From Promethearchaeota archaeon (lineage in GTDB: Archaea; Asgardarchaeota; Lokiarchaeia; Sigyniarchaeales; SOKP01): a stretch of 47,640 bases of DNA. This document shows positions 17,569 to 47,429 of the stretch, piece after piece (position 1 is the first letter of the stretch; every line of letters begins with the position of its first letter). The notes below the pieces were generated by a model. That model was not told the DNA's origin. It searched no databases and was given only the letters and a program-made list of their open reading frames with translations. The DNA lies in the NCBI GenBank assembly GCA_048941285.1, contig JBHLNS010000026.1, forward strand, positions 1-47,640. Direction: 5' to 3'. Both the position numbers and the translations under genes were made by a program.

Positions 17569-19140
17569 GTGGAGTATCATTTGCTATTGCAAAAAAATAA
17601 GCTCTTTAGAGAATTATTTAACAAGTTTCTAGAAAGTAATAAAGAAGTAATAGCTAGTATCATATCCGATGCAGAAGGATTAATCATTGCCGGTGAAAAA
17701 AGAAAAGATATTGATATGGAATTAGTTTCTTTTTTAACTTCGATTATAAATCCTATATTAAGTCGTATGCGAAATGAGTTTGATTTTCAAAAATTCGGTA
17801 ATGCAAGTTTTGATACAGAAGAACATCGTCTTTTATTTATTTCTGTTGATGAAGAAAGAATATTAAGTGTTGTTCTAGAGAGTTATGCTTCAATAGAGCG
17901 AATGTCGCCATATGGACTTTTTCTAGCTGAAAAGGCTGCACAAATACTTAATGCTGATGAAGGAGATCTCATTCAGGTTGCAATTCCAAACTTCGAATAT
18001 GAAGCTGGAAATGTTGAGAGGTTAAAAAATCAATTATATCAAATGGAATTAGGATTAGGTGGTGAATATCGCTTTAAATTCGTTGTTTTAGGTGATCATG
18101 AAGTAGGAAAAACTTCTATTATCAGAAGATTTGTAGAAAAGAGATATACAACTGATTATAGAGCAACAATCGGACTTAATGTTCTATCTCATGAATTTGA
18201 ATTTTTTGGTAACAAAATTGGTGTGACTCTTTATGATATAGGAGCCCAAAAATTCTTTCGTCGTTTTCGTAAAGTTTATTATTTGGGAGCCCAAGCTACT
18301 TTCATAGTATTTGACCTTACAAATCGCGAGTCTTTCAAAAATATTAAAAGTTGGTATGAGGAATTAAAGCTATTTACTCCGGGCGAAGATATTCCCATCG
18401 TAATCGTTGGAAATAAAACAGATTTAACTGAGGAGAGAGAAGTATTTTATCAAGAAGGAGCAAAATTAGCTAACAATTTATCCCAAAGCGAAAAAATTAA
18501 AATTTCATATATAGAAACTAGTGCTTTAAGTGGTAGCAATGTAGAGGATGCCTTTAACTTAATTTCATATCATTATGTCATGAAAAGTAAAGAAATTGAG
18601 GAAAAAAGAAGGGGTGATATTCTGCTTGATATTATTAACTCTATCTTGAAAAAGAAAATTGTTTTTACTTTATCGTTAATAACTGAAACTTTACAATGGA
18701 GCCCTGGATTACAAATTATAACGAATATTACAAAATTAGGAAACAAATCTCTTATAAGAGATTATGATGATGAGGAAGTCTATCAGTTTACGAATGGTTT
18801 GATTATAAAACAACATCAATATTCTGCTATAGATGATATTTCAAGTTCTGATGGAATATTTTGCATTTTTGATGCTCGAACAAAAGAAACTGTAGACCCT
18901 ACGTGGAAATCAATTATAATAAGACTCATAGAAAACTCAAAAGAAAACGGAGTAATTTTAATTGGGATTAGAGCTTCTGAAAGTAGTAATTGGTCTGAGA
19001 TAATTGAAAGATTAAATGTAGATGAATTTCTTGAAAACAAAATAGTAGACCTCTTATTCTTCAGAATTGGCGCTGATTTTAGGCTTGACATTTTCGATCA
19101 ACTGAAAGTAATGCTCTCTGCTATCGATAATAAATATTAA
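17569..19140 (+). CDS. Roadblock/LC7 domain + Rab-like small GTPase + degenerate G-domain (paralog 2)
   Basis: VIASIISDAEGLIIA; GDHEVGKTS, YRATIG, YDIGAQ, NKTD, ETSAL; colinear with paralog 1; start may be slightly downstream. Confidence 0.9.
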   Translation: MEYHLLLQKNKLFRELFNKFLESNKEVIASIISDAEGLIIAGEKRKDIDMELVSFLTSIINPILSRMRNEFDFQKFGNASFDTEEHRLLFISVDEERILSVVLESYASIERMSPYGLFLAEKAAQILNADEGDLIQVAIPNFEYEAGNVERLKNQLYQMELGLGGEYRFKFVVLGDHEVGKTSIIRRFVEKRYTTDYRATIGLNVLSHEFEFFGNKIGVTLYDIGAQKFFRRFRKVYYLGAQATFIVFDLTNRESFKNIKSWYEELKLFTPGEDIPIVIVGNKTDLTEEREVFYQEGAKLANNLSQSEKIKISYIETSALSGSNVEDAFNLISYHYVMKSKEIEEKRRGDILLDIINSILKKKIVFTLSLITETLQWSPGLQIITNITKLGNKSLIRDYDDEEVYQFTNGLIIKQHQYSAIDDISSSDGIFCIFDARTKETVDPTWKSIIIRLIENSKENGVILIGIRASESSNWSEIIERLNVDEFLENKIVDLLFFRIGADFRLDIFDQLKVMLSAIDNKY

Positions 19141-19153
19141 GGGAAGATTAAAA

Positions 19154-19714
19154 TTGGATATTATTATTAAACCATTAATTCCAGACCTCGTTGAGGATTT
19201 TCTCCATTTTTTTGATTCAGTTGCATTTTCAGATAATCCTAATTGGGCAGCATGTTATTGTCACTGTTATCATTTCAATGGAACAATGAAACAATTTATT
19301 AAAAGAACAGCAGAAGAGAATAGAGAATCGTCAAAAGATTTAATTATATCAGGAAAGATGCATGGTTTTATTGCTTTTGATGAGGGGAAACCAATAGGTT
19401 GGTGTAATGTTAATTCAAAGGAAATTTATGCTAAAATACCTTATGAGGAAAAATCAGAGGATAAAATCGCTTCACTTATTTGTTTTGTTATTGCCCCTTC
19501 ATATAGAAAACAAGGAGTGGCTAGACGGCTGCTAAGATTTGTATGTTCTAGTTCTAAGAATGATGGATATGATTTAATTGAAGTATATCCTATGAAGGGG
19601 CAAAAATTATCAGATGCTCATAGTTATCGAGGACCATTTTCATTATATATCTCTGAAGGGTTTTCTATTTATAAGGAATTTAAAGACTTTTATGTAATGC
19701 ATAGAAAACTCTGA
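19154..19714 (+). CDS. GNAT N-acetyltransferase
   Basis: WAACYC, CFVIAPSYRKQGVARRLL acetyl-CoA motif A, IEVYP, GF. Confidence 0.88.
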   Translation: MDIIIKPLIPDLVEDFLHFFDSVAFSDNPNWAACYCHCYHFNGTMKQFIKRTAEENRESSKDLIISGKMHGFIAFDEGKPIGWCNVNSKEIYAKIPYEEKSEDKIASLICFVIAPSYRKQGVARRLLRFVCSSSKNDGYDLIEVYPMKGQKLSDAHSYRGPFSLYISEGFSIYKEFKDFYVMHRKL

Positions 19715-21615: not shown

Positions 21616-22179
21616 ATGTCAGAAAAAAAAGAAGATAACCCCATACCATTTATTGAAGGAGAGAATGTATCTCTTTGTCCTGCAAATATGGATCACATTA
21701 ACTTATATGTTGCTTGGATGAATAATCCTAAAACTAGAAAATATGCTAGATATGAAATGCCCCAGACTATTGATGAAGTCAAAAAGCAATTTGAACCAAA
21801 AAAAGAACCAGTAAAAAGTGATATTTTTTTTGAAATTTGGCACAAAAAAGACAAGAAACCAATAGGTTATGCGGGTTTAATTAGGATTCAGTGGTTTACA
21901 CGTAATGCTCATATTTTTTTCCTTATTGATCCAGAATATTGGAGACAAAATATTGGAACTGAAGCTGGAAAACTAGTGGTAGATTATGCTTATAAAGAAT
22001 TAAATTTGCATAAAATTACTGCTCGAACATTTGCCCCATATAAGACTTCTCAGCGGGTAGCTGAGAAATTAGGCTTTAAGCATGAAATAACGCTTAAAAA
22101 AGAAGTATATATTGACGGTGAACATGTGGATGTTATTGAATATGCTATCTTTAAGGATGATTGGATAAAGTCTCATTAA
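21616..22179 (+). CDS. RimJ/RimL-family GNAT acetyltransferase (array copy 1)
   Basis: FIEGENVSL, WHKKDKKPIG, YW.QNIGTEA, ELNLHKI, AEKLGF. Confidence 0.92.
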   Translation: MSEKKEDNPIPFIEGENVSLCPANMDHINLYVAWMNNPKTRKYARYEMPQTIDEVKKQFEPKKEPVKSDIFFEIWHKKDKKPIGYAGLIRIQWFTRNAHIFFLIDPEYWRQNIGTEAGKLVVDYAYKELNLHKITARTFAPYKTSQRVAEKLGFKHEITLKKEVYIDGEHVDVIEYAIFKDDWIKSH

Positions 22180-22220
22180 AAATCGTATTGGCTTTATGAA
22201 TCAAGTGAAGAGGGTATAAT

Positions 22221-22805
22221 ATGGGAAATAAGGAAGAATTAAATGAAGCCGATGAAATTGAAGCTTTTCCTTTCATTAAAGGAGAATATATTAATCTGTG
22301 CCCTCGAGATTCCAAATTAGCAAAGACTTATGTTCGTTGGAAAAATCACCCTCATGTAAGAAAATTCGCGAGGAATGTTGTACCTAAAACAATAGAGGAC
22401 CAAAAAAAAAGATTTGAAGAAAGCACTAGGGGATTGAGAGATCATATTTCTTTAGATGTGTGGCATAAAAAAGATAAAAAACCCATTGGGGAAATTGGTT
22501 TAGGGCATATAGATTGGATTAATGGTTGGGCAAATGCATTTCTTCAAATTGGTGAAAAAGATTATTGGAATAAAGATATAGGCACCGAGGCTACAAAACT
22601 GCTCGTTGAATATGCATTTAATGAATTAAATCTAAATAAATTGCATGGGGGGGTTGCAGTGGATAATATTGGTTCATGGAGCGTAGCTGGAAAGATTGGA
22701 TTTAAGCTGGAAGGAATTAAAAAACATGAAATGTATGTTGACGGGAAATATATCGATAATAAAATCTATCGATTATTGAAAGAAGATTGGATGAAAAATA
22801 AATAA
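22221..22805 (+). CDS. RimJ/RimL-family GNAT acetyltransferase (copy 2)
   Basis: WHKKDKKPIG, YWNKDIGTEA, AFNELNLNKL, NIGSW. Confidence 0.92.
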   Translation: MGNKEELNEADEIEAFPFIKGEYINLCPRDSKLAKTYVRWKNHPHVRKFARNVVPKTIEDQKKRFEESTRGLRDHISLDVWHKKDKKPIGEIGLGHIDWINGWANAFLQIGEKDYWNKDIGTEATKLLVEYAFNELNLNKLHGGVAVDNIGSWSVAGKIGFKLEGIKKHEMYVDGKYIDNKIYRLLKEDWMKNK

Positions 22806-22878
22806 CACAAAAAAGTTCTTTTGAGGATAAAATAATAAAAATCAATCTATATAGAATAAAATAAAATTTAAAATAAAA

Positions 22879-23463
22879 ATGAATGATAAAAAGAAGAATT
22901 TTATAACACCATTTTTAGAGGGAAAAATAATAAATTTGTGTCCTTTAAACATGGAGCATGTTAATCTTTATACTAAGTGGAGTAATGATCCTGATATACG
23001 TAGATACTCGAGAAACATTATTCCCTGGACCATAGATGAAATTAAAAAATGGTCTGAATTGGAGGAAGACAGAGTTAAAAAAGAAATAGCTTTTGAGATT
23101 TGGCACCGTAAAGATAATAAACCCATTGGTACTGCTGGATTTAGTGATATTAATTGGCCTGATCGTAATGCAAATTTATTTGTAGGAATTGGAGAAATTG
23201 ACTATTGGGGGCAAAATATTGCTGCTGAAGTGAGTAGATTATTATTAGATTATGGATTTGAAGAGCTTAATCTTAATAAGGTTTATAGTAGAATATTTTC
23301 ACCAAATAAACAATCATTACGAGCTGCGGAAAAAATTGGGTTTAAGTATGAAGCAACATTGAAAGAGCATGCATATATTGAGGGTAAATTTGTTAATGAA
23401 CTGAGATTTGCACTCTTTAAGAAAGAGTGGTTAAATCAGAAAGAAATATTAAGTAAAAAGTAA
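22879..23463 (+). CDS. RimJ/RimL-family GNAT acetyltransferase (copy 3)
   Basis: WHRKDNKPIG, YWGQNI, GFEELNLNKV, AEKIGF. Confidence 0.92.
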   Translation: MNDKKKNFITPFLEGKIINLCPLNMEHVNLYTKWSNDPDIRRYSRNIIPWTIDEIKKWSELEEDRVKKEIAFEIWHRKDNKPIGTAGFSDINWPDRNANLFVGIGEIDYWGQNIAAEVSRLLLDYGFEELNLNKVYSRIFSPNKQSLRAAEKIGFKYEATLKEHAYIEGKFVNELRFALFKKEWLNQKEILSKK

Positions 23464-23499
23464 ATTTTAAATAAGAAAAATTAAGACGTAGAAAGAATT

Positions 23500-24078
23500 A
23501 TGAATAATGAAGAGGAAAGAGAAAATAAAGAAATTCCAGTCTTTATTGAAGGTAAATTAATCGATTTAGTCCCTCAAAATTTCGACCATATTAATTTATA
23601 TGTAAAATGGTTGAATGATCCAAAAGTTCGGAAATTTGCTAGATGGGAGATGCCCCGTACAGTTGAAGAGGTTAAAAGATGGTTTGAGCCTCGAGAAGGA
23701 AGAGTACCTTGGTTTATTAGCTTTGAAGTTTGGCATAAGAAAGATAGTAAACCAATAGGACAAGTAGGATTAGCTTGGATAGATTGGGTTAATGGATGGG
23801 CTAATGCTTTTGCTTATATCGGGGAACCTGAATATTGGAGCCAAGGTATTACTACAGAAGCCACGGAATTGCTTGTTGAATATGCATTCAATGAGTTAAA
23901 TCTTAATAAATTACAGGGTGGGGCAGCTATTGAAAATGTAGGTTCGTGGAGTGTTGCTGAAAAAATCGGTTTTAAATTTGAAGGAATAAGAAAAGATGAG
24001 ATGTATGTTGGCGGAAATTATCTTGACGTTAAAACATATCGTGTATCGAAAGAAGAATGGTCGAATTCCAAAAAATAG
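23500..24078 (+). CDS. RimJ/RimL-family GNAT acetyltransferase (copy 4)
   Basis: WHKKDSKPIG, YWSQGITTEA, AFNELNLNKL. Confidence 0.92.
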   Translation: MNNEEERENKEIPVFIEGKLIDLVPQNFDHINLYVKWLNDPKVRKFARWEMPRTVEEVKRWFEPREGRVPWFISFEVWHKKDSKPIGQVGLAWIDWVNGWANAFAYIGEPEYWSQGITTEATELLVEYAFNELNLNKLQGGAAIENVGSWSVAEKIGFKFEGIRKDEMYVGGNYLDVKTYRVSKEEWSNSKK

Positions 24079-24127
24079 GTTATTGAAATTATAGAATATC
24101 CAAAGTTGTGTATGTTTCATAAATAAT

Positions 24128-24742
24128 ATGGAAATTAAAAAACAGAAAGATTCTGAAGAAGTTCCAATCTTTATTGAAGGAGAGACTATATGTTTAATCC
24201 CCCATAATTCAGAATATATTAATTTGTATGTAAAATGGAATAATGATCCAAAAGTTCGAAAATACGCTCGAAGTATTTTCCCTATCAGAGTTGAAGATGC
24301 TAAAAAATGGTTTGAATCAAGCGAGAGGGGTATACCAGATTATATTGGTTTTGTAATTTGGCATAAGAAAGATAAAAAACCAATTGGTACAATAGGATTA
24401 GGACCAGTAAATTGGGTTGATGGTTGGGCAAATTTAGGAGCCTTGATTGGTGAACCAAAGTATTGGAATAAAAATATAGTCACTGAAGCTGCAGAATTAG
24501 TAATTGAATATGCTTTCAACGAATTGAATCTTTTTAAATTACAAGCTTGTGCTGCTATAGAGAACATCGGTTCTTGGACTGTTGCTGAAAAACTTGGATT
24601 CTTATTTGAAGGAATAGGAAAAAATGATATGTATGTTGATGGAAAATATTTAGATGAAAAAAGATATTGTTTATTTAGAGAAGATTGGCTAAACTCTAGA
24701 AAATTGAAACAAAATAGAAAAATGGATTTAACAAGTGATTGA
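24128..24742 (+). CDS. RimJ/RimL-family GNAT acetyltransferase (copy 5)
   Basis: WHKKDKKPIG, YWNKNIVTEA, AFNELNL. Confidence 0.92.
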   Translation: MEIKKQKDSEEVPIFIEGETICLIPHNSEYINLYVKWNNDPKVRKYARSIFPIRVEDAKKWFESSERGIPDYIGFVIWHKKDKKPIGTIGLGPVNWVDGWANLGALIGEPKYWNKNIVTEAAELVIEYAFNELNLFKLQACAAIENIGSWTVAEKLGFLFEGIGKNDMYVDGKYLDEKRYCLFREDWLNSRKLKQNRKMDLTSD

Positions 24743-24746
24743 ATAT

Positions 24747-25313
24747 ATGGACGAAAAAGAAGTTCCCGTCTTTATTGAAGGAAAAAACATATGTCTTATA
24801 CCTCAAAATTCGGAGAATATCAACTTGTATGTAAAATGGTTAAATAATCCTAAAGTGCGCATATATTCTCGCAATATCCTGCCAAAAAGAGTTGAAGATA
24901 TCAAAAAATGGTTTGAACCGCATGAGAGGGGAGCTCCCGGTTTCATCGGTTTTGAGATTTGGCATAAAAAGGATAAAAAAACACTTGGAACTGTTGGTTT
25001 AGGGTGGATAGATTGGATAAATGGGTGGACAAATGTAGGGTTAACAATAGGGGAACCAGCATATTGGAATAAGAATATAGCTACTGAAGCTACTGAATTA
25101 ATTATTGAATATGCTTTCAATGAATTAAACCTAAATAAATTACATGGCGGAGTATGTGTTAAAAATGTAGCTTCATGGAGTGTTGCTGAAAAACTTGGAT
25201 TTAAATTTGAGGGAACAAGGGAAAAAGAATGGTATGTTGATGGAGAATATCTTGGACTTAAAACCTATTGTTTATTAAAAGAAGATTGGTTAAAAATGAA
25301 TCAATTAAAATAA
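24747..25313 (+). CDS. RimJ/RimL-family GNAT acetyltransferase (copy 6)
   Basis: WHKKDKKTLG, YWNKNIATEA; ATG at 24747 preferred over GTG at 24735. Confidence 0.92.
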   Translation: MDEKEVPVFIEGKNICLIPQNSENINLYVKWLNNPKVRIYSRNILPKRVEDIKKWFEPHERGAPGFIGFEIWHKKDKKTLGTVGLGWIDWINGWTNVGLTIGEPAYWNKNIATEATELIIEYAFNELNLNKLHGGVCVKNVASWSVAEKLGFKFEGTREKEWYVDGEYLGLKTYCLLKEDWLKMNQLK

Positions 25314-34418: not shown

Positions 34419-35840
34419 TTGTATATTAAAAATACCTCTGATGTTCTTACTAAGGAATTACCTAAAGTTCAATTAAGGTTAAGAGAAATCGGACTTAAAG
34501 CAATTTCAAAGGCAATTTCAGCCGTACAGCCTAAGAATTTAATGAAAAAAAGTATCCACATAGATAATAACATACTATTCATCAAAAATGATGAGTATGA
34601 TTTACAGAAATATGAAAAAATATATTTAATCGGTGGTGGAAAAGCTACTGCTGAAATGGCATTAACACTTGAAAATTTATTGGTAAATATAAAAGCTATT
34701 GATAAAAAAAGTATTATAAATGTCCCTCAGAGCAATAAAATTCAAGGTTTTTTAAACAAAACAAATATATCTCTTAATTTTGCTACACATCCCATACCAA
34801 ATAAAAATGGGCTTAAAGGGTCCCTCTCCATGATGGAAATCATAGAGAACTCGAATGAAAATGACCTTATAATTTGCTTAATCTCAGGGGGAGGGTCTGC
34901 TTTACTTCCATTGCCAAAAAAGGGTATAGAACTTAAAGATTTACAATATGCTAATTCTTTACTTTTATCATCAGGCGCCTCGATTCATGAAATTAACACA
35001 ATAAGAAAACACTTGTCAGATTTTAAAGGAGGTAATTTAGCAAAAAAATTATATAATTCAAGTGGAGCTAAATTAATCTCGTTAATTATTTCTGATGTTG
35101 TTGGTGATGATCTTGATTCAATTGCTTCAGGGCCTACAGTACCTGATAAAACTACTTTTTTGGATGCTTATGAAATTATAAAAAAATATAACCTTTTAGA
35201 AAAAATCCCAATTTCAGTGAGAGATCATTTAGAAAAGGGTTTATCTGATAGTTCTTTAGAAAATCCAAAGCCCAATGATCCATGTTTTACAAATATTCAT
35301 AATTATTTAATTGGAAGTGTAAAATCGGCCGTTCAAGAGGTCAAATCTTTCTTAAAAAATGAAGGATTCGAAATAGAATGTTTTTCTAATAATGTAATAG
35401 GTGAAGCTAAGGAATTTGGAAAAGATCTATATGGTATTATTACTAAATGCATTCAAATGAATTTAGATCAAAAGAAAAATTCAAGAAAAGCGTTGATTGG
35501 AACGGGTGAATTAACAGTTACGATTAGAGGTAAGGGAATTGGAGGAAGAAATCAAGAGATGCTTTTAGGTTTTCTAAATTATATAAAAGATAAAAGCCTT
35601 AATTATCATTTTCTACTCATTGGTGTTAATCTAGATGGGATAGAAGGTAATAGTGAAGCAATGGGTGCTTTAATTGATAATTATGTATTTGAACAAATGA
35701 TAACGAAAAATATCGATCCTGAGAAGTTCTTAACTAATAATGATTCAAACAGCTTTTTTAAGAAACTAAGAACTGAATTAATAAGTGGACCAACAGGTTG
35801 TAATGTTAATGATTTAATCTTAATTCTTATACTTATATAA
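34419..35840 (+). CDS. Glycerate 2-kinase (MOFRL/DUF4147 family)
   Basis: GGGKA, ATHPIP, LISGGGSAL, INTIRKHLS.FKGG.L, SDVVGD.L..IASGP, GGRNQE, GPTGCNVND. Confidence 0.93.
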   Translation: MYIKNTSDVLTKELPKVQLRLREIGLKAISKAISAVQPKNLMKKSIHIDNNILFIKNDEYDLQKYEKIYLIGGGKATAEMALTLENLLVNIKAIDKKSIINVPQSNKIQGFLNKTNISLNFATHPIPNKNGLKGSLSMMEIIENSNENDLIICLISGGGSALLPLPKKGIELKDLQYANSLLLSSGASIHEINTIRKHLSDFKGGNLAKKLYNSSGAKLISLIISDVVGDDLDSIASGPTVPDKTTFLDAYEIIKKYNLLEKIPISVRDHLEKGLSDSSLENPKPNDPCFTNIHNYLIGSVKSAVQEVKSFLKNEGFEIECFSNNVIGEAKEFGKDLYGIITKCIQMNLDQKKNSRKALIGTGELTVTIRGKGIGGRNQEMLLGFLNYIKDKSLNYHFLLIGVNLDGIEGNSEAMGALIDNYVFEQMITKNIDPEKFLTNNDSNSFFKKLRTELISGPTGCNVNDLILILILI

Positions 35841-36233: not shown

Positions 36234-38402
36234 ATGGGTAAAAAAGATAAGAAAAAGAAACCACCCGCGCGAACAGCACGAATGGGCTGGGATAAATCAG
36301 AAGCAGAGGAAGAGATCGTAGCTGATGCATTAAAACGAAAAGACATGGATAAAGGACGCGTTGAATTGATTGATAGAGATACCTCTACACCAGTTATCGA
36401 GACATATGACGAAGATACAGGAAAACTTGAAGGTAGTATCGTTTTAAAAGATGGAAATAGAGAAGGATTACTAGCTTTGGTAAAAATAATTGAATCAGTA
36501 GAAGTAGAACAGGATCATGATGCTAATATTAAATCATTTGCCCATAATGGTAAATTAAATATTGAAAATCCTAGTTCTGTTGATCGATTATGGGATATAG
36601 ACGTTACTCTCGAAAAAATTGGTAGTACAGATTTAAAATCTAAAGATATTTCAATCAGAGAATTAGGCACTGAATCACCCGATAATGTTGACTCAAGGAA
36701 TTTTAAAATAACAAAAGATATAAAAAATTTATTGCTAGTGAAAGAGTTTATAAGTACATTACCTAATGCTGACGATGTTTTAAATATCAATGATATAGAG
36801 AAGGATCTGCTCAAATTAAAAGATAAAACGGGTAAACCTTCATCTAAACCCTCTCCGAAACCTCCACCAGAGCCGAAAGTAGAAGAGGAGGAAGAAGAAG
36901 AAGAGGAAGAATTAGGAGATAAGGGTGAAACTTGGAGTGATGGTGGAACTCTCGTAGAAGCCGGTTTAGAATCTTTTGGAATCTCAATTGATAAACAAAA
37001 TGTTGTGACATTTGCTATAGCAATTAGAAGTATGTTTGATAAACCAGTTACTAATCTGAAAGTAGTAAAAAATATTCCTGATGATTTTACGAATCCAATC
37101 GTTAAAGATACAAGCGAAGGAAGAGCTGAAATTGAAGATAATAAAATAATTTGGACAATTGATAAATTAGCTCCAGAATATACTGTGATGTGTAAATTTA
37201 CATGCAATATTATGGTAACAGACATCACTAAAAGAAGAACTGGAAAAATAGAAGTCACTTATCAGGCCGCATCTTCATATGCTGAAGGCTTAGCAATAGG
37301 AAAATTCGATGCATATACAAGAAATAAATTTTATGTAGATACAGTTGAAAGGGATGAAGAACCTGGCATTTTTGATTGTAAGCTTGTATTTAATAATTCA
37401 TCCGAATTTATCATACAACTATTCAATGCAGATGTATATTCCCCAGAAGATGAAACAAAAAAATTTGTAGATATTGATCCTAATGATGTTCCAATGTTAC
37501 CAAGTGGAGCGCAGTGGCACTCTATAAAGTGGGAGTATAAGAGCGACGAATATCCAACCTTCAGGAAGAAATTAGAATTTCGAGTTATGCCTGATTTTCA
37601 GACTATAGTCAATGGAACAATGGCTCTATCAGATGTTATACTAGAGATTGGAAGTATCTCTGGTGTAATGTCCTACAACTTAATTGAAGTTCCAACTTAC
37701 CGAAAAAAAGATGTCATTGCAACACTTAAAATGGTTAATAATGGTTCAGCACCACTTGATGAGGTTACAATAATTCAACAATACTTTTCTGATGAATATC
37801 AACCTCCAAAAGCAGATGAAATTAAATTGCTATGGGATGGTGAAGAAGTTGAAGTTTCTCCCGGAGCAGTAACCTTCGAAGATAAAGCTTTTAAGATTGA
37901 TCTTAGAGATTTGAAAAACAGTAGCACGGGCATGTTTAATCCAGACTCTACTTTAGAGTTTGAATATCCTATTCATTGTGAAAGCCCTGCACGAGAATCT
38001 ACCTTTGAATCTGAAATAATATATCTAGCAAATACCTTTCCAGTAAGTCAGGAGTTAGAATTTAAACCAGATGTTCCTGTAATCGAAGCGATGCATATCA
38101 GACGTAAATTCAGAATTGGAAAAGAAGTGGTACCTATTGGAGATCTTGGGAATTATAGAATTATATTGACACTTGAAAATATTGGTGAGTCTAAACTTAG
38201 TAATTTGATTATCTTAGATAAAGTACCAGATCTATTTGAGTATGGTACATATTCTATGACTCCAGAAATCACTGATGAAGTGGGACAAGATACACTAAAG
38301 TGGAATATAAAACTTTTAGATATAGGAGAAAAATTGGAAATCACATATGAAATAACAGGTAAAGGCAAATATAGTCCATCTGATGCCCAATTAGCGCTTT
38401 AA
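36234..38402 (+). CDS. Cytosolic multi-beta-sandwich protein with mu-homology (adaptin mu/delta-COP C-terminal)-like domain
   Basis: LVKIIESVEVEQDHDANIKSFAHNGKL; IRSMFDKPVTNLKVVKNIP...TSEGRAEIEDNKIIWTI; KIEVTYQAASSYAEGLAI; further Ig-like modules; no signal peptide. ORF is certain, domain call is by eye. Confidence 0.65.
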   Translation: MGKKDKKKKPPARTARMGWDKSEAEEEIVADALKRKDMDKGRVELIDRDTSTPVIETYDEDTGKLEGSIVLKDGNREGLLALVKIIESVEVEQDHDANIKSFAHNGKLNIENPSSVDRLWDIDVTLEKIGSTDLKSKDISIRELGTESPDNVDSRNFKITKDIKNLLLVKEFISTLPNADDVLNINDIEKDLLKLKDKTGKPSSKPSPKPPPEPKVEEEEEEEEEELGDKGETWSDGGTLVEAGLESFGISIDKQNVVTFAIAIRSMFDKPVTNLKVVKNIPDDFTNPIVKDTSEGRAEIEDNKIIWTIDKLAPEYTVMCKFTCNIMVTDITKRRTGKIEVTYQAASSYAEGLAIGKFDAYTRNKFYVDTVERDEEPGIFDCKLVFNNSSEFIIQLFNADVYSPEDETKKFVDIDPNDVPMLPSGAQWHSIKWEYKSDEYPTFRKKLEFRVMPDFQTIVNGTMALSDVILEIGSISGVMSYNLIEVPTYRKKDVIATLKMVNNGSAPLDEVTIIQQYFSDEYQPPKADEIKLLWDGEEVEVSPGAVTFEDKAFKIDLRDLKNSSTGMFNPDSTLEFEYPIHCESPARESTFESEIIYLANTFPVSQELEFKPDVPVIEAMHIRRKFRIGKEVVPIGDLGNYRIILTLENIGESKLSNLIILDKVPDLFEYGTYSMTPEITDEVGQDTLKWNIKLLDIGEKLEITYEITGKGKYSPSDAQLAL

Positions 38403-38536
38403 ATTTAATAAAGCACTTTTTATTTTTTTTATTTTTTATATTTACACTAATAGTTTAATAACCTTAGAGATAATTCTTAAATGATAAAATAATGAATTTT
38501 AATTTAATTACTACTTTTAATATGTCTTGAGAAAGA

Positions 38537-40207
38537 ATGTTAAGAAAACGTTATCAATTGAATTGGATGTTTGAATGCCCAGATGCGGTGTTAACGTGTT
38601 CAATTTTGAAATGTAAAGGTAATAATTTCCTAGTTTTTGGCGGACATGACAAGAAATTATATTTGATGGATGAAGAGAGGAATATTGTAGATGATAGAAT
38701 GTTCGATGGATGGTGCAGATGTAGTTATCCAATAGATCTTGATGGAGATGGATGTGATGAGATATTAGTTGGTGCAGGTGATGGCAATTTTATGGTTTTA
38801 AAATTAAATGTTGAGAAAAAAAAGCTTGCAGGTTTAATGCGATACAAATCTTCAAAGAGGATTAATTGCTGTATTGCTGGAGATTTCACTCGAGATGGGA
38901 ATATAGAATTAATTTTTGGAGGTGACGATAAGACTCTTAGAATTTTTGATGACATTAAGGCAAAAAAGCCAAAGTTTATGTTATATTATGATTCCTGGGT
39001 CACTACTTGCTCATTGGGTTTTTTGAAATTAGCCGATTATGATGATCCTATATATGGTTTATTAGTTGGCACTAAAAATGGATTAGTTCAATTAATTCAA
39101 TTCCAAGATAACACGTTAGATATTATGTGGCAGAAAAATTTTACTACACAGATCAATGATATTAAAGTTGGAGATGTTACTAATGATGGTTTGAATGAGA
39201 TTCTAATAAGCACTGACGATTTATTCATTAAGATATTAAATAGTGCAGGAGAAACCATAAATGAGGTTAGTACTGAGGATGGAAGACCAATATCTTTATT
39301 AATCGAAGATATTGATGGTGATAATGCGAAAGAAATTGTTGCAGGATGTGCAGATGGGTCTCTAAAAGTTTTTCATAATCCAAATTTAGACTCACATGAA
39401 TTTGAATTAAAATGGAAAACTAAAGTATCCACTTCTATTAAAAACGTATGCTATCTAATTGAAGAAGATAAGAGCGTAAAACAGATAGTATTTGGAGGAT
39501 ATGATCGCACAATTAGGAATGTCACTGATTTTGAATGGGGGCAAAAGCAATCGCTTGAAATCCCTAATAAAATAATAATTGATGAAATTAAGGAGAGTAA
39601 AAAAGTAGATTTAATTAATGAAATTGCGAAAATAAAGGAAGTTCCAACAAATATGAGAGAACATATATTCAACATTCTTAAAGAAAAAGGACATCTAAAA
39701 GACTTAATGCAGGAATTATTAAAATTAGGTTATTCAGAAGATGAAATTTTGGATGAATTTGCACTTTTAAAGACTCAGAAATCAGTTCTTTATGAGAAAA
39801 TTACTTATCCTGTATGGAGTTTACCGAGTGAAGAATTTGAGAAGGAGATGCCTGAAGAAGTTAAAGCAGAAATTAAAGTTGAAGAACAACCAAAACCTAA
39901 GGTACAACCATTAGTTATTGAGGAAAGTATTACACCAAAAAAAGAGAAATTACGAGCAATATTAGAAGTTGAATCTAAGCTAGAAACCTCTGAAGGAAAA
40001 GTTAGTAGTGGCGGATCCTTGAAAAAAATGATTCTTGAATATCTAAAAGAGCATAAACTCGTAGCTACAAAAGCGCAGTTTATTAATGATATTAAAGAAA
40101 GGGGTTTTTCTAATAGTCAAATTGAAAATGAAATAAATGAATTAAAGGATCAAGGTAAAATTCAATATTCAAGAGCTAAACCAAAAGGTTGGAGCTTAAC
40201 TGGATAA
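38537..40207 (+). CDS. FG-GAP/VCBS-type beta-propeller with two C-terminal winged-helix-like domains
   Basis: DLDGDGCDEILVG, GDFTRDGNIELIFG, GDVTNDGLNEILIS, DIDGDNAKEIVAG; two repeats I..IL/YLKE...GYS/GFS..I..E...LK...Y.....WSL; no signal peptide. Confidence 0.75.
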   Translation: MLRKRYQLNWMFECPDAVLTCSILKCKGNNFLVFGGHDKKLYLMDEERNIVDDRMFDGWCRCSYPIDLDGDGCDEILVGAGDGNFMVLKLNVEKKKLAGLMRYKSSKRINCCIAGDFTRDGNIELIFGGDDKTLRIFDDIKAKKPKFMLYYDSWVTTCSLGFLKLADYDDPIYGLLVGTKNGLVQLIQFQDNTLDIMWQKNFTTQINDIKVGDVTNDGLNEILISTDDLFIKILNSAGETINEVSTEDGRPISLLIEDIDGDNAKEIVAGCADGSLKVFHNPNLDSHEFELKWKTKVSTSIKNVCYLIEEDKSVKQIVFGGYDRTIRNVTDFEWGQKQSLEIPNKIIIDEIKESKKVDLINEIAKIKEVPTNMREHIFNILKEKGHLKDLMQELLKLGYSEDEILDEFALLKTQKSVLYEKITYPVWSLPSEEFEKEMPEEVKAEIKVEEQPKPKVQPLVIEESITPKKEKLRAILEVESKLETSEGKVSSGGSLKKMILEYLKEHKLVATKAQFINDIKERGFSNSQIENEINELKDQGKIQYSRAKPKGWSLTG

Positions 40208-40654
40208 TTATTCTTGAGCTTTTTTTATAAAAAACTCCTGGATTGTGTCTTGAAAGGGTTCAAACTGATTTAATTCTGTGAAATCTGTTCTTTCATACTT
40301 TTGAATGAATAGTTGAAGGATTGGGTCGACCCTTTCAAAAAATTTTTTAACAAGTTTATCTGATTTTTTTTTGGATTTGTCAACTAGTCCATATAAAATA
40401 ATTGGTTCTTTTAAACGATTATCTCTAGATTGAATTTCTGCTATTTTAAATATAAACAAAATATTACCAGATTCTAGATATTCAATAGAATTTTTATTAA
40501 AAGCAGTGTCAACAAATGTATTAATTGCAGAAATAAATGCACCCCTAAGATCCTTATTTATTCCACTCTCTTTTTGAACTGGAAGTTTTTTCATTACATG
40601 ATTTACAAGGACAAATCCGCGAAATACAAAACCTATCTCGTAAAGTTCCTTCAA
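40208..40654 (-). CDS. Stand-alone longin-like domain protein
   Basis: beta-beta (IGFVFRGFVLV), helix DLRGAFISAINTF, strands IEYLES/ILFIF/ILYGLVD, helix ending FIQKY, terminal FEPFQDTI. Confidence 0.7.
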   Translation of the reverse strand: MKELYEIGFVFRGFVLVNHVMKKLPVQKESGINKDLRGAFISAINTFVDTAFNKNSIEYLESGNILFIFKIAEIQSRDNRLKEPIILYGLVDKSKKKSDKLVKKFFERVDPILQLFIQKYERTDFTELNQFEPFQDTIQEFFIKKAQE

Positions 40655-43454: not shown

Positions 43455-46400
43455 TCATGAAATTTGATTTATTATACAAGATGCTTTAGTTATTAAGACC
43501 TCTCCTATTTCAGCTGAAATTATCTCATCCTTAATGAAGTCATATATTTGATTAATAAATGATTGAAGTATGTTGCATGCTACTTCGAATTGTTCATTTT
43601 CTATCTTCATAATTGCTATATCTAATTTAATTGTTAAAGATTTTCCTTGACCATTTCTTAAGATTCCCTCATCTACCATATCATTCACCTCATCTATCAA
43701 GTGTTGAGCTCTCTGTATAGGGTTATCACGCTCACTCGTTCGTGGATATGGATCTTCATTTAAAGCAGCACCATCAATAGAATATGGAAAATCAACAATT
43801 CCTATCGGATCTTCCACATCTGGGCTAATCCAATCACTCCAGTAATTATATTCAAATAAATTATTAAAACCATTATCAGAAGCTTGACAACTTCCTTCAT
43901 TGTTTTCAATGATATCATTCCATTTAATTAAGTTCTCACTAGACATGGAAGCAATATAAATCCCATACCATCCACTATTGATAATATAATTGTCTAAAAT
44001 ATCATTGTTACCTGAATCGTCTTGAAGTGTGACTCCAACACCATTCTCATAAATTAAATTGTATGATACAAGGTTAAAATCATTATCGTCGTTTAATCCT
44101 ATTCCCTCAGCATAATTATTATTAATTTCATTCCAAGTTATATTATTATAATCTGAATACTCATAAAGAATTATTCCAGAATTACAATCAAAGATATGGT
44201 TGTGTGAGATATTGTTGTTGTCGGAAGAATGAAGACCAATCCCTTCCCATTGATTATTGTAAACAACATTGTCCACTATTTCATTATTAACAGCTCCACC
44301 CCAAAGTACAATCCCAGCATCGTTTTGATGCACATCATTATTAATCACCTCATTCTTACTCGAATCATAAATTTCAATGCCAAAATAGTCGTTCTCTCCA
44401 AGATCATTACAAACTATCCTGTTATCAAATGAAGATGAGATATGAGTTCCTATACAATTATATAATAACGTGTTATCGGATATTAAACTGTTACTTGAGG
44501 ACTCCAGAACGATTCCATGAAAATTGTTAATAACGACATTATTTTCAATGATTCCATTTTCAATGTTCTCTAAATATATCCCATCCCAGTCTTGTGTGAT
44601 ACCATCTAGCTTACACTTGCGTATGATGAAATATACTGTTGTATCTTTGATATGGATCAAATTCCCATTATCAGCTGTAATATAAAAACTTTCAATAAGA
44701 TAAGGGTCTCCTTCCTCTCCACTCCCCGGGAAATCATAAGTTTCGAAATCATCATCACTATCAATATATATTGGGTCTTCTAAAGAACGGACAGATATGA
44801 TGGGCTCACCGATATCAGGATCCTCTGTTTCCTCTATAACTGTAATCATCTGATCTGTTTGACCCTCATCTAAAGAAACTTCCTCAACAGATCGTTCAAA
44901 TAATATTTCGCCTTCTGCACTAGAGAAATACTCCATAGAATAAGATGTATCCTCCGTCGCTGTTATTTCATAACTATAAGTTCCAAATATAGGGTCTTCA
45001 GGATTGATAGCTATAAGGATCATTACACTGTCTTCTCCTTCATCCCAGTCTTCATTTTCTATATAGAATGCATTTAAACCAATTTCATTAACATCCGCAT
45101 TAATTATTCGCCCATAAGGATCTTCAGCCTGGAAAATTATAGGAGAACCTCCACGCCCTGTCATCCACCAATCAGCGTACGGAAGCGGGCCATACTTTTC
45201 TGGAATTGAAGGATCCAAAAGAGGTGCATCATCTACACCTTCATGTGGTAGATCAGTGTCTCCAATATAATCTCCATCTGAATCATTACCCCAGTAATTA
45301 CTCCAAAAGTTACCTACATTGTTAATCGGGTCTACCCATACATTTAAACCAGCCAAAATCTGATGTGAATTGTTGATCAAAAGATTCCGGTAAATATAAT
45401 TTGAACTACCATTAGCAAAAACACCCCACCATGTATTTCTAGCAATAATATTATTGGTTACTTCATTCAGTGTTGAAGAAAGTATAATTCCTATTTTATT
45501 ATCTGATATATAATTAATAGTAATATTATTATGGTCACCACCATAAATTGAAATCCCTGTATGAAAACCTTGAATTGTAAGATTTTTTATTGTTACTGAG
45601 TCATAATTACTGATCAAAACGCCACTTCCACTACCGCTACCTATAATTTTGTGGCCATTACCATTAATCGTGATTCCATCTGCTCCTATTTTAAGCCCAT
45701 TTCCTTCCTCAAAATACATATCTGAAGTTAATGTATAATCAGTGGTGATTAGTTGAGACCCATATTCATAATAGACAGAATGAAACCATAATTTTTCCAT
45801 AGGATTTGATTGAAACCCATTGAATTCATTATTATAAGCATCGTAATTTCTGGGGACAAAGAGATATGCATACGGCATTGAATCCTCAACAAGATATTCT
45901 TGAATCGTGTTATAAATTTTTTTTCTATTTTCAGAATCATACGTATTTAACCCATCTAATAAGAGTTGTTCAAGATAATTGTCATCTACTACGCCAAGGT
46001 TCCAACCTCCTTCTCTACTGTACAAATCATATAAAAAATTGTTTGGGTCGTTGTAATCCTGAACCCATCCTATAAGCAATAACTCTAACTTTCTTCTCTC
46101 AACTAATCTAAATAAAAATTCTTCCCACTCTACTCCATCAAGGATTATTTTTATTCCTACTTTTGTTAGATTATTCTGTAGCATTGAACCTAATTCCTCT
46201 CTTTGTATATTTGCTATATTATAGACATAATCATATGTTAGAAATTCTCCTTGCTCCCATGAATCTTCATCAATACCAGGATATGTCGTATCTAATCCGA
46301 TACCATAACCAGCATCCTGCATAGCTTCCCTAGCTTCGGTAAAATTTAATTTTGGAAAGTCTAATGTTGAATTTGCATATAAAATCCCGTTTGGAACAGG

Positions 46401-47429
46401 TGATTTCAACCTTGAATAATGCCCTTCTAATATATCATTAATTATATAATTATAATCAATTGCATATGATATAGCTCTTCTAATATATGGATCTGATATC
46501 TCTGTATTATTCATTGTTAAAAAATAACCTACTGTTGTATTCCCGGCATCTACAAATGTAATATCTACATCTTCTTTAAGATCTTCAATCTTAGAGACAT
46601 CAATATTATTTATAAAATCAACATCGCCATCTAATAGAGACTGAGTAGCATCTGAAGTGATGATAAACGTTAATTCATCTATATTCGCAGGGCCATCCCT
46701 ATAATTTGCAAATTTATGAAATCTCACTTCATTACCATCATATGAATCATAGATAAAAGGACCTGTTCCAACCAAATCTCCTGTCATCAAATCAATATAT
46801 TCTTCTTGGGGAGTTGAGACTTGGGACATAATTCCTGATCCGCTAAAACATAACAGAGCTTCAAATGGAGCAAATTTCTTATTTAATACAAATTCTATCT
46901 CATAATCGCTTATGATATTTGTCGAATTGATTATAGGTTTTCCATTAGGCCACTGATACACTGAGTAAATATAGGCTTTATGGATTTCTCTAGGTAAAGT
47001 ACCAGATACATTCATGAAATAAGCTAATCTTTCGAAACTCCACCAAACAGCAGAAGCATTGAATTCGGATCCATCATGAAACTTAATACCATGCTTAAGT
47101 AAGACTCTATATGTTAAACCGTCTAAATCCCATGTACCGAAATCTGAAGCAAGACTTGGGATAATACCGAGTTCAGGATCAGATAAATTGTATGTAAATA
47201 ACCTTTCAACAACCTGATCTATAACGTTATAAGAAGGAGTATCCCATGCATTAAGTGGATCTAAACTTGCAGGACCCGCATATGTACCATATTTTAGTTC
47301 TATAGGTGACCCAGAAGTCCTAAGTTTTTCAATTATTTCTATTTTATTATCTACTTTTATCGGATTATAACTAAACACAGCAAAAATTATGATAAAAATA
47401 ATACAAATTGAAATTCGATTAGTTTTCAT
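43455..47429 (-). CDS. Secreted/anchored family-5 (oligopeptide-type) solute-binding protein fused to two NosD/CASH beta-helix regions and a C-terminal helical (FIMAH-like) domain
   Basis: N-terminal hydrophobic segment; SLDP, LKHGIKFHDGSEFNA, VGTGPF, IRRAISYAID, GWVQDYNDP; repeats GIxLxxSxNNxIxxNxIxxN; GNFWSNY/YNYWSDW...D..P; GQGKSLTIKL...LQSFINQI. Confidence 0.88.
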   Translation of the reverse strand: MKTNRISICIIFIIIFAVFSYNPIKVDNKIEIIEKLRTSGSPIELKYGTYAGPASLDPLNAWDTPSYNVIDQVVERLFTYNLSDPELGIIPSLASDFGTWDLDGLTYRVLLKHGIKFHDGSEFNASAVWWSFERLAYFMNVSGTLPREIHKAYIYSVYQWPNGKPIINSTNIISDYEIEFVLNKKFAPFEALLCFSGSGIMSQVSTPQEEYIDLMTGDLVGTGPFIYDSYDGNEVRFHKFANYRDGPANIDELTFIITSDATQSLLDGDVDFINNIDVSKIEDLKEDVDITFVDAGNTTVGYFLTMNNTEISDPYIRRAISYAIDYNYIINDILEGHYSRLKSPVPNGILYANSTLDFPKLNFTEAREAMQDAGYGIGLDTTYPGIDEDSWEQGEFLTYDYVYNIANIQREELGSMLQNNLTKVGIKIILDGVEWEEFLFRLVERRKLELLLIGWVQDYNDPNNFLYDLYSREGGWNLGVVDDNYLEQLLLDGLNTYDSENRKKIYNTIQEYLVEDSMPYAYLFVPRNYDAYNNEFNGFQSNPMEKLWFHSVYYEYGSQLITTDYTLTSDMYFEEGNGLKIGADGITINGNGHKIIGSGSGSGVLISNYDSVTIKNLTIQGFHTGISIYGGDHNNITINYISDNKIGIILSSTLNEVTNNIIARNTWWGVFANGSSNYIYRNLLINNSHQILAGLNVWVDPINNVGNFWSNYWGNDSDGDYIGDTDLPHEGVDDAPLLDPSIPEKYGPLPYADWWMTGRGGSPIIFQAEDPYGRIINADVNEIGLNAFYIENEDWDEGEDSVMILIAINPEDPIFGTYSYEITATEDTSYSMEYFSSAEGEILFERSVEEVSLDEGQTDQMITVIEETEDPDIGEPIISVRSLEDPIYIDSDDDFETYDFPGSGEEGDPYLIESFYITADNGNLIHIKDTTVYFIIRKCKLDGITQDWDGIYLENIENGIIENNVVINNFHGIVLESSSNSLISDNTLLYNCIGTHISSSFDNRIVCNDLGENDYFGIEIYDSSKNEVINNDVHQNDAGIVLWGGAVNNEIVDNVVYNNQWEGIGLHSSDNNNISHNHIFDCNSGIILYEYSDYNNITWNEINNNYAEGIGLNDDNDFNLVSYNLIYENGVGVTLQDDSGNNDILDNYIINSGWYGIYIASMSSENLIKWNDIIENNEGSCQASDNGFNNLFEYNYWSDWISPDVEDPIGIVDFPYSIDGAALNEDPYPRTSERDNPIQRAQHLIDEVNDMVDEGILRNGQGKSLTIKLDIAIMKIENEQFEVACNILQSFINQIYDFIKDEIISAEIGEVLITKASCIINQIS

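Follow-up and report, generated by a model that had tools for sequence, protein, structure and literature searches.

What might three adjacent genes, encoding in turn a protein with a mu-homology domain (MHD), a beta-propeller protein and a longin-fold protein, do together in an Asgard archaeon, and do all three belong to one system? These genes, called here A, B and C, lie in a stretch of 47,640 nucleotides from a Promethearchaeota archaeon of the Lokiarchaeia (the window; contig JBHLNS010000026.1 of assembly GCA_048941285.1, positions 1 to 47,640), which has a G+C content of around 30%. The origin of vesicle adaptors and coats is an open question of eukaryote origins, and the prior picture of the Asgard homologues of adaptor domains was one of scattered, unfused pieces without a context. 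A first-pass annotation of the window had taken the trio for a candidate proto-adaptor or coat locus. The reading favoured here, to which a probability of around 0.55 may be given, is narrower: A and B would form an adaptor-like cytosolic scaffold for protein interactions, and C would be at most an accessory to it. This figure mostly rests on the link between A and B, the steps involving the membrane and a GTPase being much less certain. The features on which the argument turns are the following:

34419..35840, forward strand: glycerate kinase gene (DUF4147/MOFRL; Pfam E 1.1e-74 and 8.9e-27), upstream of A and used as the synteny control
36234..38402, forward strand: gene A, 722 amino acids (aa), an MHD plus Ig-like protein from clade I of a widespread Asgard family
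38403..38536, no strand: spacer of 134 bp between A and B, with a long oligo-T run shortly after the stop codon of A (~38416-38438, by sequence inspection)
38537..40207, forward strand: gene B, 556 aa, with an FG-GAP beta-propeller at residues 1 to ~345 and, behind it, two tail modules that look like winged helices
40208..40654, reverse strand: gene C, 148 aa with a TTG start, a longin-fold protein in the syntenic backbone

The three open reading frames are adjacent, as had been claimed, and the stop codons of the convergent genes B and C do abut at 40207/40208, B ending with TAA at 40205-40207 and C with a stop that reads TTA on the forward strand at 40208-40210. Simple hydropathy finds no membrane or signal-like segment in A, B or C, the highest Kyte-Doolittle means over 19 residues being 1.32, 1.03 and 0.99, respectively, and by this measure the three proteins look soluble. 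Database proteins at E <= 0.001 number 352 for A, 406 for B and 633 for C, and the best 120 relatives of each are 63-100% identical to it. At the distance of genus g8 (genome G180), the identities of A, B and C are 51%, 44% and 50%, which is close to the 55% of the flanking glycerate kinase; for this reason, A, B and C are, to judge from their sequences, real genes under purifying selection. The T run behind A resembles an archaeal terminator, which suggests that B may own a separate promoter.

The arrangement of these genes was followed in two samples, one of 201 Asgard genomes across the phylum, where the family of the window is denoted f1, and one of 151 genomes of the order, where B was sought with a family profile and the window's A at E <= 1e-80; the tallies of adjacency and of three-gene loci were made by eye from the search tables. 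In the phylum sample, full-length B occurs in 32 genomes, all of f1, and adjoins C in 31 of them; A, B and C share a contig in 26 of 41 f1 genomes. The conserved backbone runs in the order phosphoesterase, glycerate kinase, the A-B pair, C, a GCAxxG gene and two small open reading frames (at locus L039, the glycerate kinase is again upstream of A). At four loci, L036 (genus g2), L037 and L038 (g3) and L014 (genome G141), A and B are absent and the glycerate kinase is directly followed by C across an AT-rich spacer of 145-691 bp. No remnants of A or B were found by tblastn in the gap between glycerate kinase and C of these four genomes, and the matches elsewhere in the four loci are at chance level only (E 2.3 and 3.8). 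As the glycerate kinase still has C beside it at loci that lack A and B, A-B is an insertion/deletion unit and C is part of the backbone; and because C keeps its place without them, background synteny accounts for its position next to B. The locus is thereby shown to be a two-gene cassette, A-B, within a conserved backbone to which a longin gene already belonged.

The members of this cassette come and go together. In the order sample, the B profile finds 125 of 151 genomes and the window's A finds 113; each is present in 48 of 52 genomes of genus g1, B is present in 40 and A in 37 of the 42 genomes of g4, and both are absent from all four genomes of g2 and all five of g3. This joint presence and absence at the genus level shows that the gain or loss of one goes with that of the other. 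Where B is present, A adjoins it in 48 of 49 genomes of g1, the 49th having B at the start of a contig, and in 36 of 40 genomes of g4, where three of the four exceptions have B at the end of a contig and the fourth (G150) is without an A match. The pairing recurs in a second Lokiarchaeial family, f2, in which A adjoins B in all three genomes with full-length B (G162, G207 and G210), there in the convergent orientation; a fourth f2 genome with a convergent pair is represented by locus L085, and one closed 6.0-Mb genome of f2 bears the pair. In G162, the flanking genes encode a PEP-utilising enzyme and an AIR-synthase-like protein, unlike the context in f1. The best evidence for cooperation between A and B is thus that they adjoin each other in two orientations and in two contexts and are jointly present or absent, although the independent events are few.

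A quick tree of the A family, with SH-aLRT support, adds to this picture. The A protein of the cassette groups with proteins of f2 and f27 (support 89), and a second A copy of this genome, on contig C79, groups with the sole copies of g2, g3 and g6 (support 100). Genera g2 and g3 therefore lack an A of the cassette type, since the only A copies that they have belong to the clade of the second copy.

Could C nevertheless be a working part of the system? The AlphaFold2 model of C, built on 28 sequences with paralogues included, has a predicted local distance difference test score (pLDDT) of 83.2 and runs strand-strand-helix-strand-strand-strand-helix-helix, which is the longin order. An exhaustive structural comparison by VIA-align over 48,161 chains gives solely longins at ranks 1-21, those at ranks 1-19 covering residues 1-148 with Z values from 12.9 down to 10.0; the best is Trs23 (3cue_A, Z 12.9, 129 residues aligned), followed in a range of 11.6-12.9 by CPLANE (7q3d_C, 12.3) and by TRAPPC, a solved Lokiarchaeota longin and VAMP7 (7b6d_C, 8yqg_B and 4afi_B, 11.7). 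The N-terminal longins of AP mu and the AP sigma subunits come lower, at Z 8.9-10.4 (10.3-10.4 for AP-5 and AP-3 sigma), and roadblock domains match residues 1 to ~121 only, at 8.7-9.9. Foldseek places C in the longin/roadblock superfold, with a template modelling (TM) score of ~0.5. At the sequence level, neither phmmer nor a profile search against the PDB gives a match for C, and the Pfam longin families (Longin, Sybindin, Clat_adaptor_s and Fuz_longin_1) match none of 28 members of its family at E <= 1; one atlas neighbour cluster, with a score of 0.88, carries Fuz_longin_1 on 34% of its members, which is a lead only.

These structural comparisons of the model confirm the longin fold of C. 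The match extends over the whole 148 residues for the longins of TRAPP (Trs23/TRAPPC4 and TRAPPC1), CPLANE/Fuzzy, VAMP7/Sec22, Mon1-Ccz1, AP sigma and the Lokiarchaeota protein 8yqg, from which C differs in being a stand-alone single domain that resembles no Pfam longin family or PDB chain in sequence. With a spread of less than 3 between the Z values, no eukaryotic longin subfamily can be assigned to C, and on these models C is no closer to the sigma/mu longins than to those of TRAPP or VAMP7. Its family has two to eight members per genome in f1, with four in this genome.

Two observations on the surroundings of C relatives may be added. A distant paralogue of 151 aa on contig C68 of the same genome (L033:6164-6616, profile E 6.6e-14) is followed after 22 bp by a gene in the same direction for an MMR_HSR1 plus TGS GTPase (L033:4948-6138). 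In genome G040 of genus g3, where the cassette is absent, a divergent gene for a 334-aa Ras/Arf/Gtr1-like GTPase is found on the other side of C (L037:6648-7649).

The first-pass annotation had supposed that C and A are the longin and MHD halves of a medium subunit of the AP/COPI type, split over separate genes, and that with B as the coat propeller they make a membrane-cargo sorting coat. All three folds were correctly named (the MHD of A by a structural match of its model to mu2 with Z 19.6, the propeller of B by Pfam and profile matches to BBS7, BBS2 and ITFG2, and the longin of C by Z 12.9), as were the extra Ig modules of A (residues 468-722, all-beta, with DUF11 matches), whereas the winged helices proposed for the tail of B fit the sequence pattern and weak matches but are unconfirmed as a fold. 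The conserved synteny described above, with the three genes on one contig and B next to C, also agrees with such a complex, as do the AP sigma and mu longins among the structural matches of C, and, in eukaryotes, mu-like subunits and propeller proteins occur together in TSET and COPI. What is not supported is the place of C in one unit with the others. At loci without A and B, C is still found beside the glycerate kinase; a single-sequence query with C finds 43 of 201 genomes (40 of 40 in f1 and two weak matches among 160 others), so that its family is essentially that of one genome family, whereas the A family is present in 184; TRAPP, CPLANE and VAMP7 longins match C at least as well as sigma and mu do, and the atlas lead is to Fuzzy-type longins. 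In addition, the convergence of B and C makes a shared transcript of the two impossible. Nor are adaptin-like large subunits, or AP small subunits, encoded near the locus: elsewhere in the genome there are HEAT-repeat matches of a kind that also arises in control genomes, an Adaptin_N match of 48 bits to a model that also matches 3 of 14 control genomes, and one Clat_adaptor_s match of 23.2 bits inside a frame of 532 aa. A three-gene coat is therefore highly improbable, and the more attractive picture of a trio is to be corrected accordingly: the longin gene owes its place here to descent and is not a demonstrated subunit. What survives of the sorting complex is its reduced form, an MHD protein working with a propeller, because the adjacency of A and B recurs independently.

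The protein encoded by A has the following parts:

36234..36293, forward strand: polybasic disordered N-terminus, residues 1-20 (8 K/R, 2 D/E; pLDDT < 50)
36459..37634, forward strand: MHD with both subdomains, residues ~76-467, from the structural match of the model
36843..36953, forward strand: disordered loop that interrupts the MHD, rich in Pro and with poly-Glu, residues 204-240 (pLDDT < 50)
37635..38399, forward strand: C-terminal beta-sandwich (Ig/DUF11-like) modules, residues 468-722, from the all-beta model

When 1.84 billion representative sequences are scanned in full with HMMER, 331 relatives of A are found at E <= 0.001, with a conserved core at residues ~245-720. An alignment of 85 A-family sequences was the basis both of a profile (A1) and of an AlphaFold2 model of A, which has a mean pLDDT of 87.5 and is disordered only at residues 1-20 and 204-240. 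In a VIA-align comparison with this model, all 50 listed matches are MHDs. The best is mu2 of AP-2 (5wrk_A, Z 19.6, root-mean-square deviation (rmsd) 3.6 A, 224 of 245 residues), the alignment running from 77 to 467 in the model and from 169 to 435 in mu2; mu4, mu1 and mu3 follow with Z values of 17.7, 17.5 and 17.4, and then delta-COP (16.8) and SGIP1 (15.4). Foldseek gives a TM-score of 0.67 with an rmsd of 3.4 for the mu2 C-terminal domain, and ranks first some long multi-Ig proteins with poor TM-scores of 0.10-0.18.

The sequence signal points the same way and is weak. The best PDB matches of the A1 profile are the mu subunits of AP-3 and AP-2, with E values of 0.01-0.04, whereas a search with the single sequence of A finds no PDB match; the sole sequence alignment that covers the strand of the tyrosine-motif (YxxPhi) pocket scores -0.5 bits. 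Pfam finds DUF11 alone in the window's A. A precomputed match to the Pfam MHD model PF00928 is listed for 29 of the 120 homologues listed, and on rescanning, three of six close homologues were above the cut-off (34-35 bits against 31.6); this match spans positions 123-240 only of the 259 in the profile, and DUF11 matches the very same stretch.

In the model, the 75 residues before the MHD of A begin with the disordered basic N-terminus and also hold a single helix and four strands, all short. The N-terminus is polybasic rather than hydrophobic, and its start, M-x-K/R-K-D/K-K-K-K, is shared by the 10 close orthologues compared and by some relatives at a greater distance, and is absent from those most distant. 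The region of the insertion (residues 204-245) has 15 D/E and 4 K/R. Behind the MHD, residues 468-722 are all-beta with a pLDDT mostly above 90; in A homologues, DUF11 matches at ~635-709, and TIGR01451 has an E value of 0.012 at 635-676. No longin or sigma Pfam domain is found in A or in 17 members of its family that were scanned, 13 of which are longer forms; one of the 17 is a fusion to a NACHT NTPase. According to the model and to hydropathy, then, A is a soluble protein with a polybasic disordered N-terminus, a complete MHD that contains an acidic disordered loop, Ig-like sandwiches behind it and no longin. Two other identities were considered and rejected: that of a secreted or surface DUF11 adhesin, since there is neither a hydrophobic N-terminus nor a membrane segment and the MHD match is specific, and that of a true mu subunit, since the longin domain is absent from the family.

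A resembles the MHDs of AP mu1-mu4, delta-COP and the muniscins (SGIP1/FCHo) in its bipartite all-beta fold and in its weak sequence signal to these same proteins, although identity to known MHDs is just 7-15%. Unlike mu and delta-COP, it has no N-terminal longin domain and, unlike the muniscins, no F-BAR domain; its MHD is not C-terminal, having ~255 residues of Ig-like sandwiches behind it. The acidic, Pro-rich loop of 37 residues and the polybasic N-terminus likewise set A apart from these proteins.

The partner of A in the cassette is a propeller. Pfam gives B 66.6 bits for Beta-prop_BBS7 and 41 bits for BBS2_Mid, with a cut-off of 27 for each, as well as 45 bits for FG-GAP_3, which is above its cut-off, and 23.3 bits for Itfg2, which is below. 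A 24-sequence profile of the B family (A3) matches the PDB sequences of ITFG2 (E 3.9e-11), BBS7 (3.4e-5) and BBS2 (6.1e-4), and no other solved protein scores below 0.02. Loops of the form D-x-D-G-x-x-E-I/L are repeated in the alignment. These sequence matches confirm B as an FG-GAP beta-propeller of the ITFG2/BBS2/BBS7 kind, its homology to ITFG2 of KICSTOR and to BBS2 and BBS7 of the BBSome being detectable at the sequence level.

It is in the tail that B departs from these proteins, and alignment conservation delimits the relevant feature:

39629..40204, forward strand: tail of B, with winged-helix-like module 1 (residues ~365-432), an acidic linker and winged-helix-like module 2 (residues 493-556)

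The C-terminal architecture of BBS2 and BBS7 consists of coiled-coil, GAE and platform domains; B instead has the winged-helix-like modules, and its residues 350-556 have no Pfam match to the BBS C-terminal families. The tail ends in a conserved YSRxxPKGW. Its sequence pattern is winged-helix-like (TFA2_Winged_2, E 0.21), and a profile of it finds weak winged-helix matches in the PDB, among them PKZ Z-alpha (E 0.28), HrcA (1.3) and the winged helix of MCM, along with designed helical repeats (E 6e-4 and 2e-3) that are probably compositional; the atlas scores are at most 0.78. The two modules are plausible candidate winged helices whose fold is unconfirmed. In relatives of B from f2, the last tail module is found in about four tandem copies, compared with one in B.

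Relatives of B also furnish some observations of their own. The B-like proteins of f2 at L083:1583-3814, L084:2234-4567 and L086:1248-3785 have 744-846 aa and consist of the propeller and the ~4 tandem C-terminal winged-helix-like modules. At L072:1347-3553 and L073:470-2849 (f2; genomes G089 and G094), the B-like gene lies behind a TFIIB gene and a gene for a gelsolin-repeat protein. Two matches to B contain in-frame stop codons, three TGA and one TAA at G261:C263:1194-2735 and one each of TGA, TAG and TAA at G294:C1:276280-277773; either might be a decayed copy or an assembly error.

The tail raises the question of whether A and B might cooperate away from membranes, with the winged-helix-like modules of B binding nucleic acid or another polymer, in regulation or proteostasis, and the MHD of A serving as a generic interaction sandwich. 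Such a role would fit a tail module present in one to four copies with a winged-helix-like pattern and weak Z-alpha, HrcA and MCM matches, and it would fit the strong acidity of A and the fact that the middle of its MHD scores equally with the prokaryotic DUF11 and with PF00928. The surroundings of the locus agree with it as well, the immediate neighbours in the window being metabolic genes and a Pfam scan of the neighbourhood finding no membrane-trafficking genes. Against this must be set a full-length and specific MHD match in which 50 of the 50 top matches are MHDs of adaptors or muniscins, and a propeller whose only solved relatives at E < 0.001 are ITFG2, BBS7 and BBS2 and which, in family f7, is fused to a Ras GTPase. 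A role away from membranes is thus considered unlikely.

The fusion just mentioned is also what brings a GTPase into the argument. B-like matches are found in 37 of 43 genomes of f7, in frames of ~770-800 aa, and all three loci fetched from this family encode the B-type propeller in one protein with a Ras domain at the C-terminus (E 1e-45 to 3e-47):

L069:1880-4180 (G075), L071:1882-4188 (G128) and L082:3203-5530 (G063): fusions of ~770 aa with a Ras/Roc domain

The middle region of these proteins reads like a beta-sandwich, and their gene sits between an ABC ATPase gene and a gene for a pyruvate:ferredoxin oxidoreductase subunit. We know of no such propeller-Ras architecture in eukaryotes. 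There, the BBSome is paired with Arl6 and KICSTOR with the Rag pathway. Because f7 fuses the propeller to Ras, this type of propeller is tied to small-GTPase function.

How, then, might A and B work as a scaffold? By analogy with known MHDs, that of A would bind short linear motifs in other proteins; to our knowledge, all characterised MHDs read such motifs. The polybasic N-terminus could keep A at an anionic membrane surface through electrostatic contact. The propeller of B and its tail modules would supply a platform, which is probably coupled to, or recruited by, a small GTPase, given that in f7 the same type of propeller forms one protein with a Ras-like GTPase. C would then probably be a general longin-type module for GTPase regulation and not a subunit. 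A far stronger version of this proposal may be formulated, in which A and B are a working archaeal proto-adaptor, with a membrane-tethered MHD that selects the tails of membrane proteins, a propeller scaffold recruited by a Ras/Arf-like GTPase and longins such as C acting as GTPase regulators, the whole being ancestral to the MHDs of AP, COPI and TSET and to the propellers of the BBSome and KICSTOR; this version is distinctly unlikely.

Several observations weigh against even the modest form, that of an adaptor-like scaffold. Firstly, in the proteins themselves, the window's A has no PF00928 match at E <= 1 in a Pfam scan; its overall net charge of -46 speaks against a role of the MHD itself in binding lipids; and the tail modules of B could point to nucleic-acid binding instead. 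Secondly, the interaction of A with B is putative, being drawn from gene adjacency and co-occurrence, and the oligo-T run behind A suggests that the two may be separate transcripts. Thirdly, the two genes are not always together: no A accompanies the B-like genes of f2 in the stretches fetched at L073 and L083, or at L084 and L086, which are on short contigs, and genome G135 of genus g6 has B and C and no clade-I A, a 1925-aa protein upstream of B there having no match to the A profile. Fourthly, the A family in other Asgard families keeps different company, with no B, C, propeller, longin or GTPase as a neighbour in 18 loci and a metallo-beta-lactamase-fold gene upstream in 8 of these 18. Finally, the region is syntenic throughout f1, whose genomes are kin and not independent, so that adjacency inside f1 alone is weak evidence.

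Taken to its end, this line of argument would make A and B independent genes without any functional unit, brought and kept side by side by shared descent and a single event of transfer or deletion. The kinship of the genomes of one family, the synteny of the entire region, the terminator-like run of T between the genes and the relatives that have a B-like gene and no A beside it are all as expected in that case. However, a second family has the two genes side by side as well, there turned the other way relative to each other and between other flanking genes, and A and B are jointly present or absent at the level of the genus, so that an absence of any unit is unlikely. A prediction of the complex (A 21-470 and B 1-350, and C as a partner) gave a score of 0.00 in two runs; these were made with no controls and with the tail of B and the C-terminal modules of A left out, and the result counts neither way.

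To what extent was this system already known? Eme et al. (2023, PMC10307638) reported that all AP/COPI domains, the mu C-terminal domain included, are present in Asgard archaea, where they are 'not fused' and 'sparsely distributed', and the caution over novelty in the first-pass annotation was therefore justified. One catalogue-matched 'BBS7/ITFG2' cluster shared by Asgard archaea and eukaryotes figures in a preprint (bioRxiv 10.64898/2026.10.28.762692), and Asgard longins are well known, according to the 2020 preprint of Liu et al. All three folds have thus already been reported in Asgard archaea. The difference from the account of Eme et al., as far as its main text goes, is one of breadth: with the A1 profile, members of the broad A family turn up in 184 of the 201 Asgard genomes, missing only from three families with small genomes, while PF00928 has no match at E <= 0.01 anywhere in the whole genome to which the window belongs.

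The gene pair of MHD and propeller is undescribed in the main texts searched, the supplementary tables of which may list these proteins. That of Köstlbacher et al. (2026, PMC12962969) contains none of the terms BBS, ITFG2, KICSTOR, 'mu homology' and 'propeller', and the text of the Liu et al. preprint none of 'adaptor', 'mu subunit' and 'propeller', with the same reservation as to supplementary tables. The literature on Asgard archaea and the BBSome offers no Asgard BBS homologues in titles and abstract openings, and nothing was found on Asgard archaea together with a mu homology domain or FG-GAP. On ITFG2 in archaea, the bioRxiv preprint cited above is the sole relevant work found. Hence, what was not found in print is the A-B pairing, an MHD without a longin and with Ig modules, a propeller with winged-helix-like repeats or Ras, and the wide spread of the A family.

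The interest of the locus follows from this. The MHD found here belongs to a family present in most of the Asgard genomes sampled, which the standard Pfam model misses in this genome, and repeated adjacency and a shared pattern of presence and absence connect one clade of that family with a BBSome/KICSTOR-type propeller, of a type that is fused to Ras in another lineage. A and B are a concrete two-protein system open to expression, purification and tests of binding, membrane association and GTPase dependence, and as such are a testable lead rather than a demonstrated proto-coat.

Other loci of the A family have neighbours that may be recorded in their own right. The eight with the metallo-beta-lactamase-fold gene belong to clade II (L051, L052, L055, L056, L057, L058, L065 and L066, from families f7, f19, f8 and f26); that gene encodes a protein of ~235 aa (Lactamase_B_3) and directly adjoins the MHD-family gene, with which it is co-directional. 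HerA-like DUF87 ATPases are encoded near the MHD-family gene in loci of f7 and f26. At L052 (G038:C1:1982400-1996300), there are, within a few kb of that gene, genes for ubiquitin and a prokaryotic RING finger (weak, below the cut-off), for an ARPC4-like protein (30.5 bits) and for an IFT52 GIFT-domain protein (51 bits).

The rest of the window contains several further genes worth noting. Six tandem paralogous GNAT (Acetyltransf_3) genes, encoding 187-204 aa each, stand head to tail on the forward strand at 21616-25313, and a seventh GNAT gene is located at 19154-19714. Just before these, two tandem proteins of ~525 aa, at 15857-17443 and 17569-19140 on the forward strand, have a central Ras/Roc/Arf-like GTPase domain (residues ~169-332), flanked on both sides by regions without a domain assignment. 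On the reverse strand, a 780-aa protein at 29-2371 has many TPR repeats and a weak N-terminal match to MIT (26.6 bits, below the cut-off), a domain that binds ESCRT-III in eukaryotes, and a 1324-aa protein at 43455-47429, which probably belongs to the cell surface, combines a hydrophobic N-terminus with a solute-binding domain (SBP_bac_5) and repeats of the NosD/right-handed beta-helix type.

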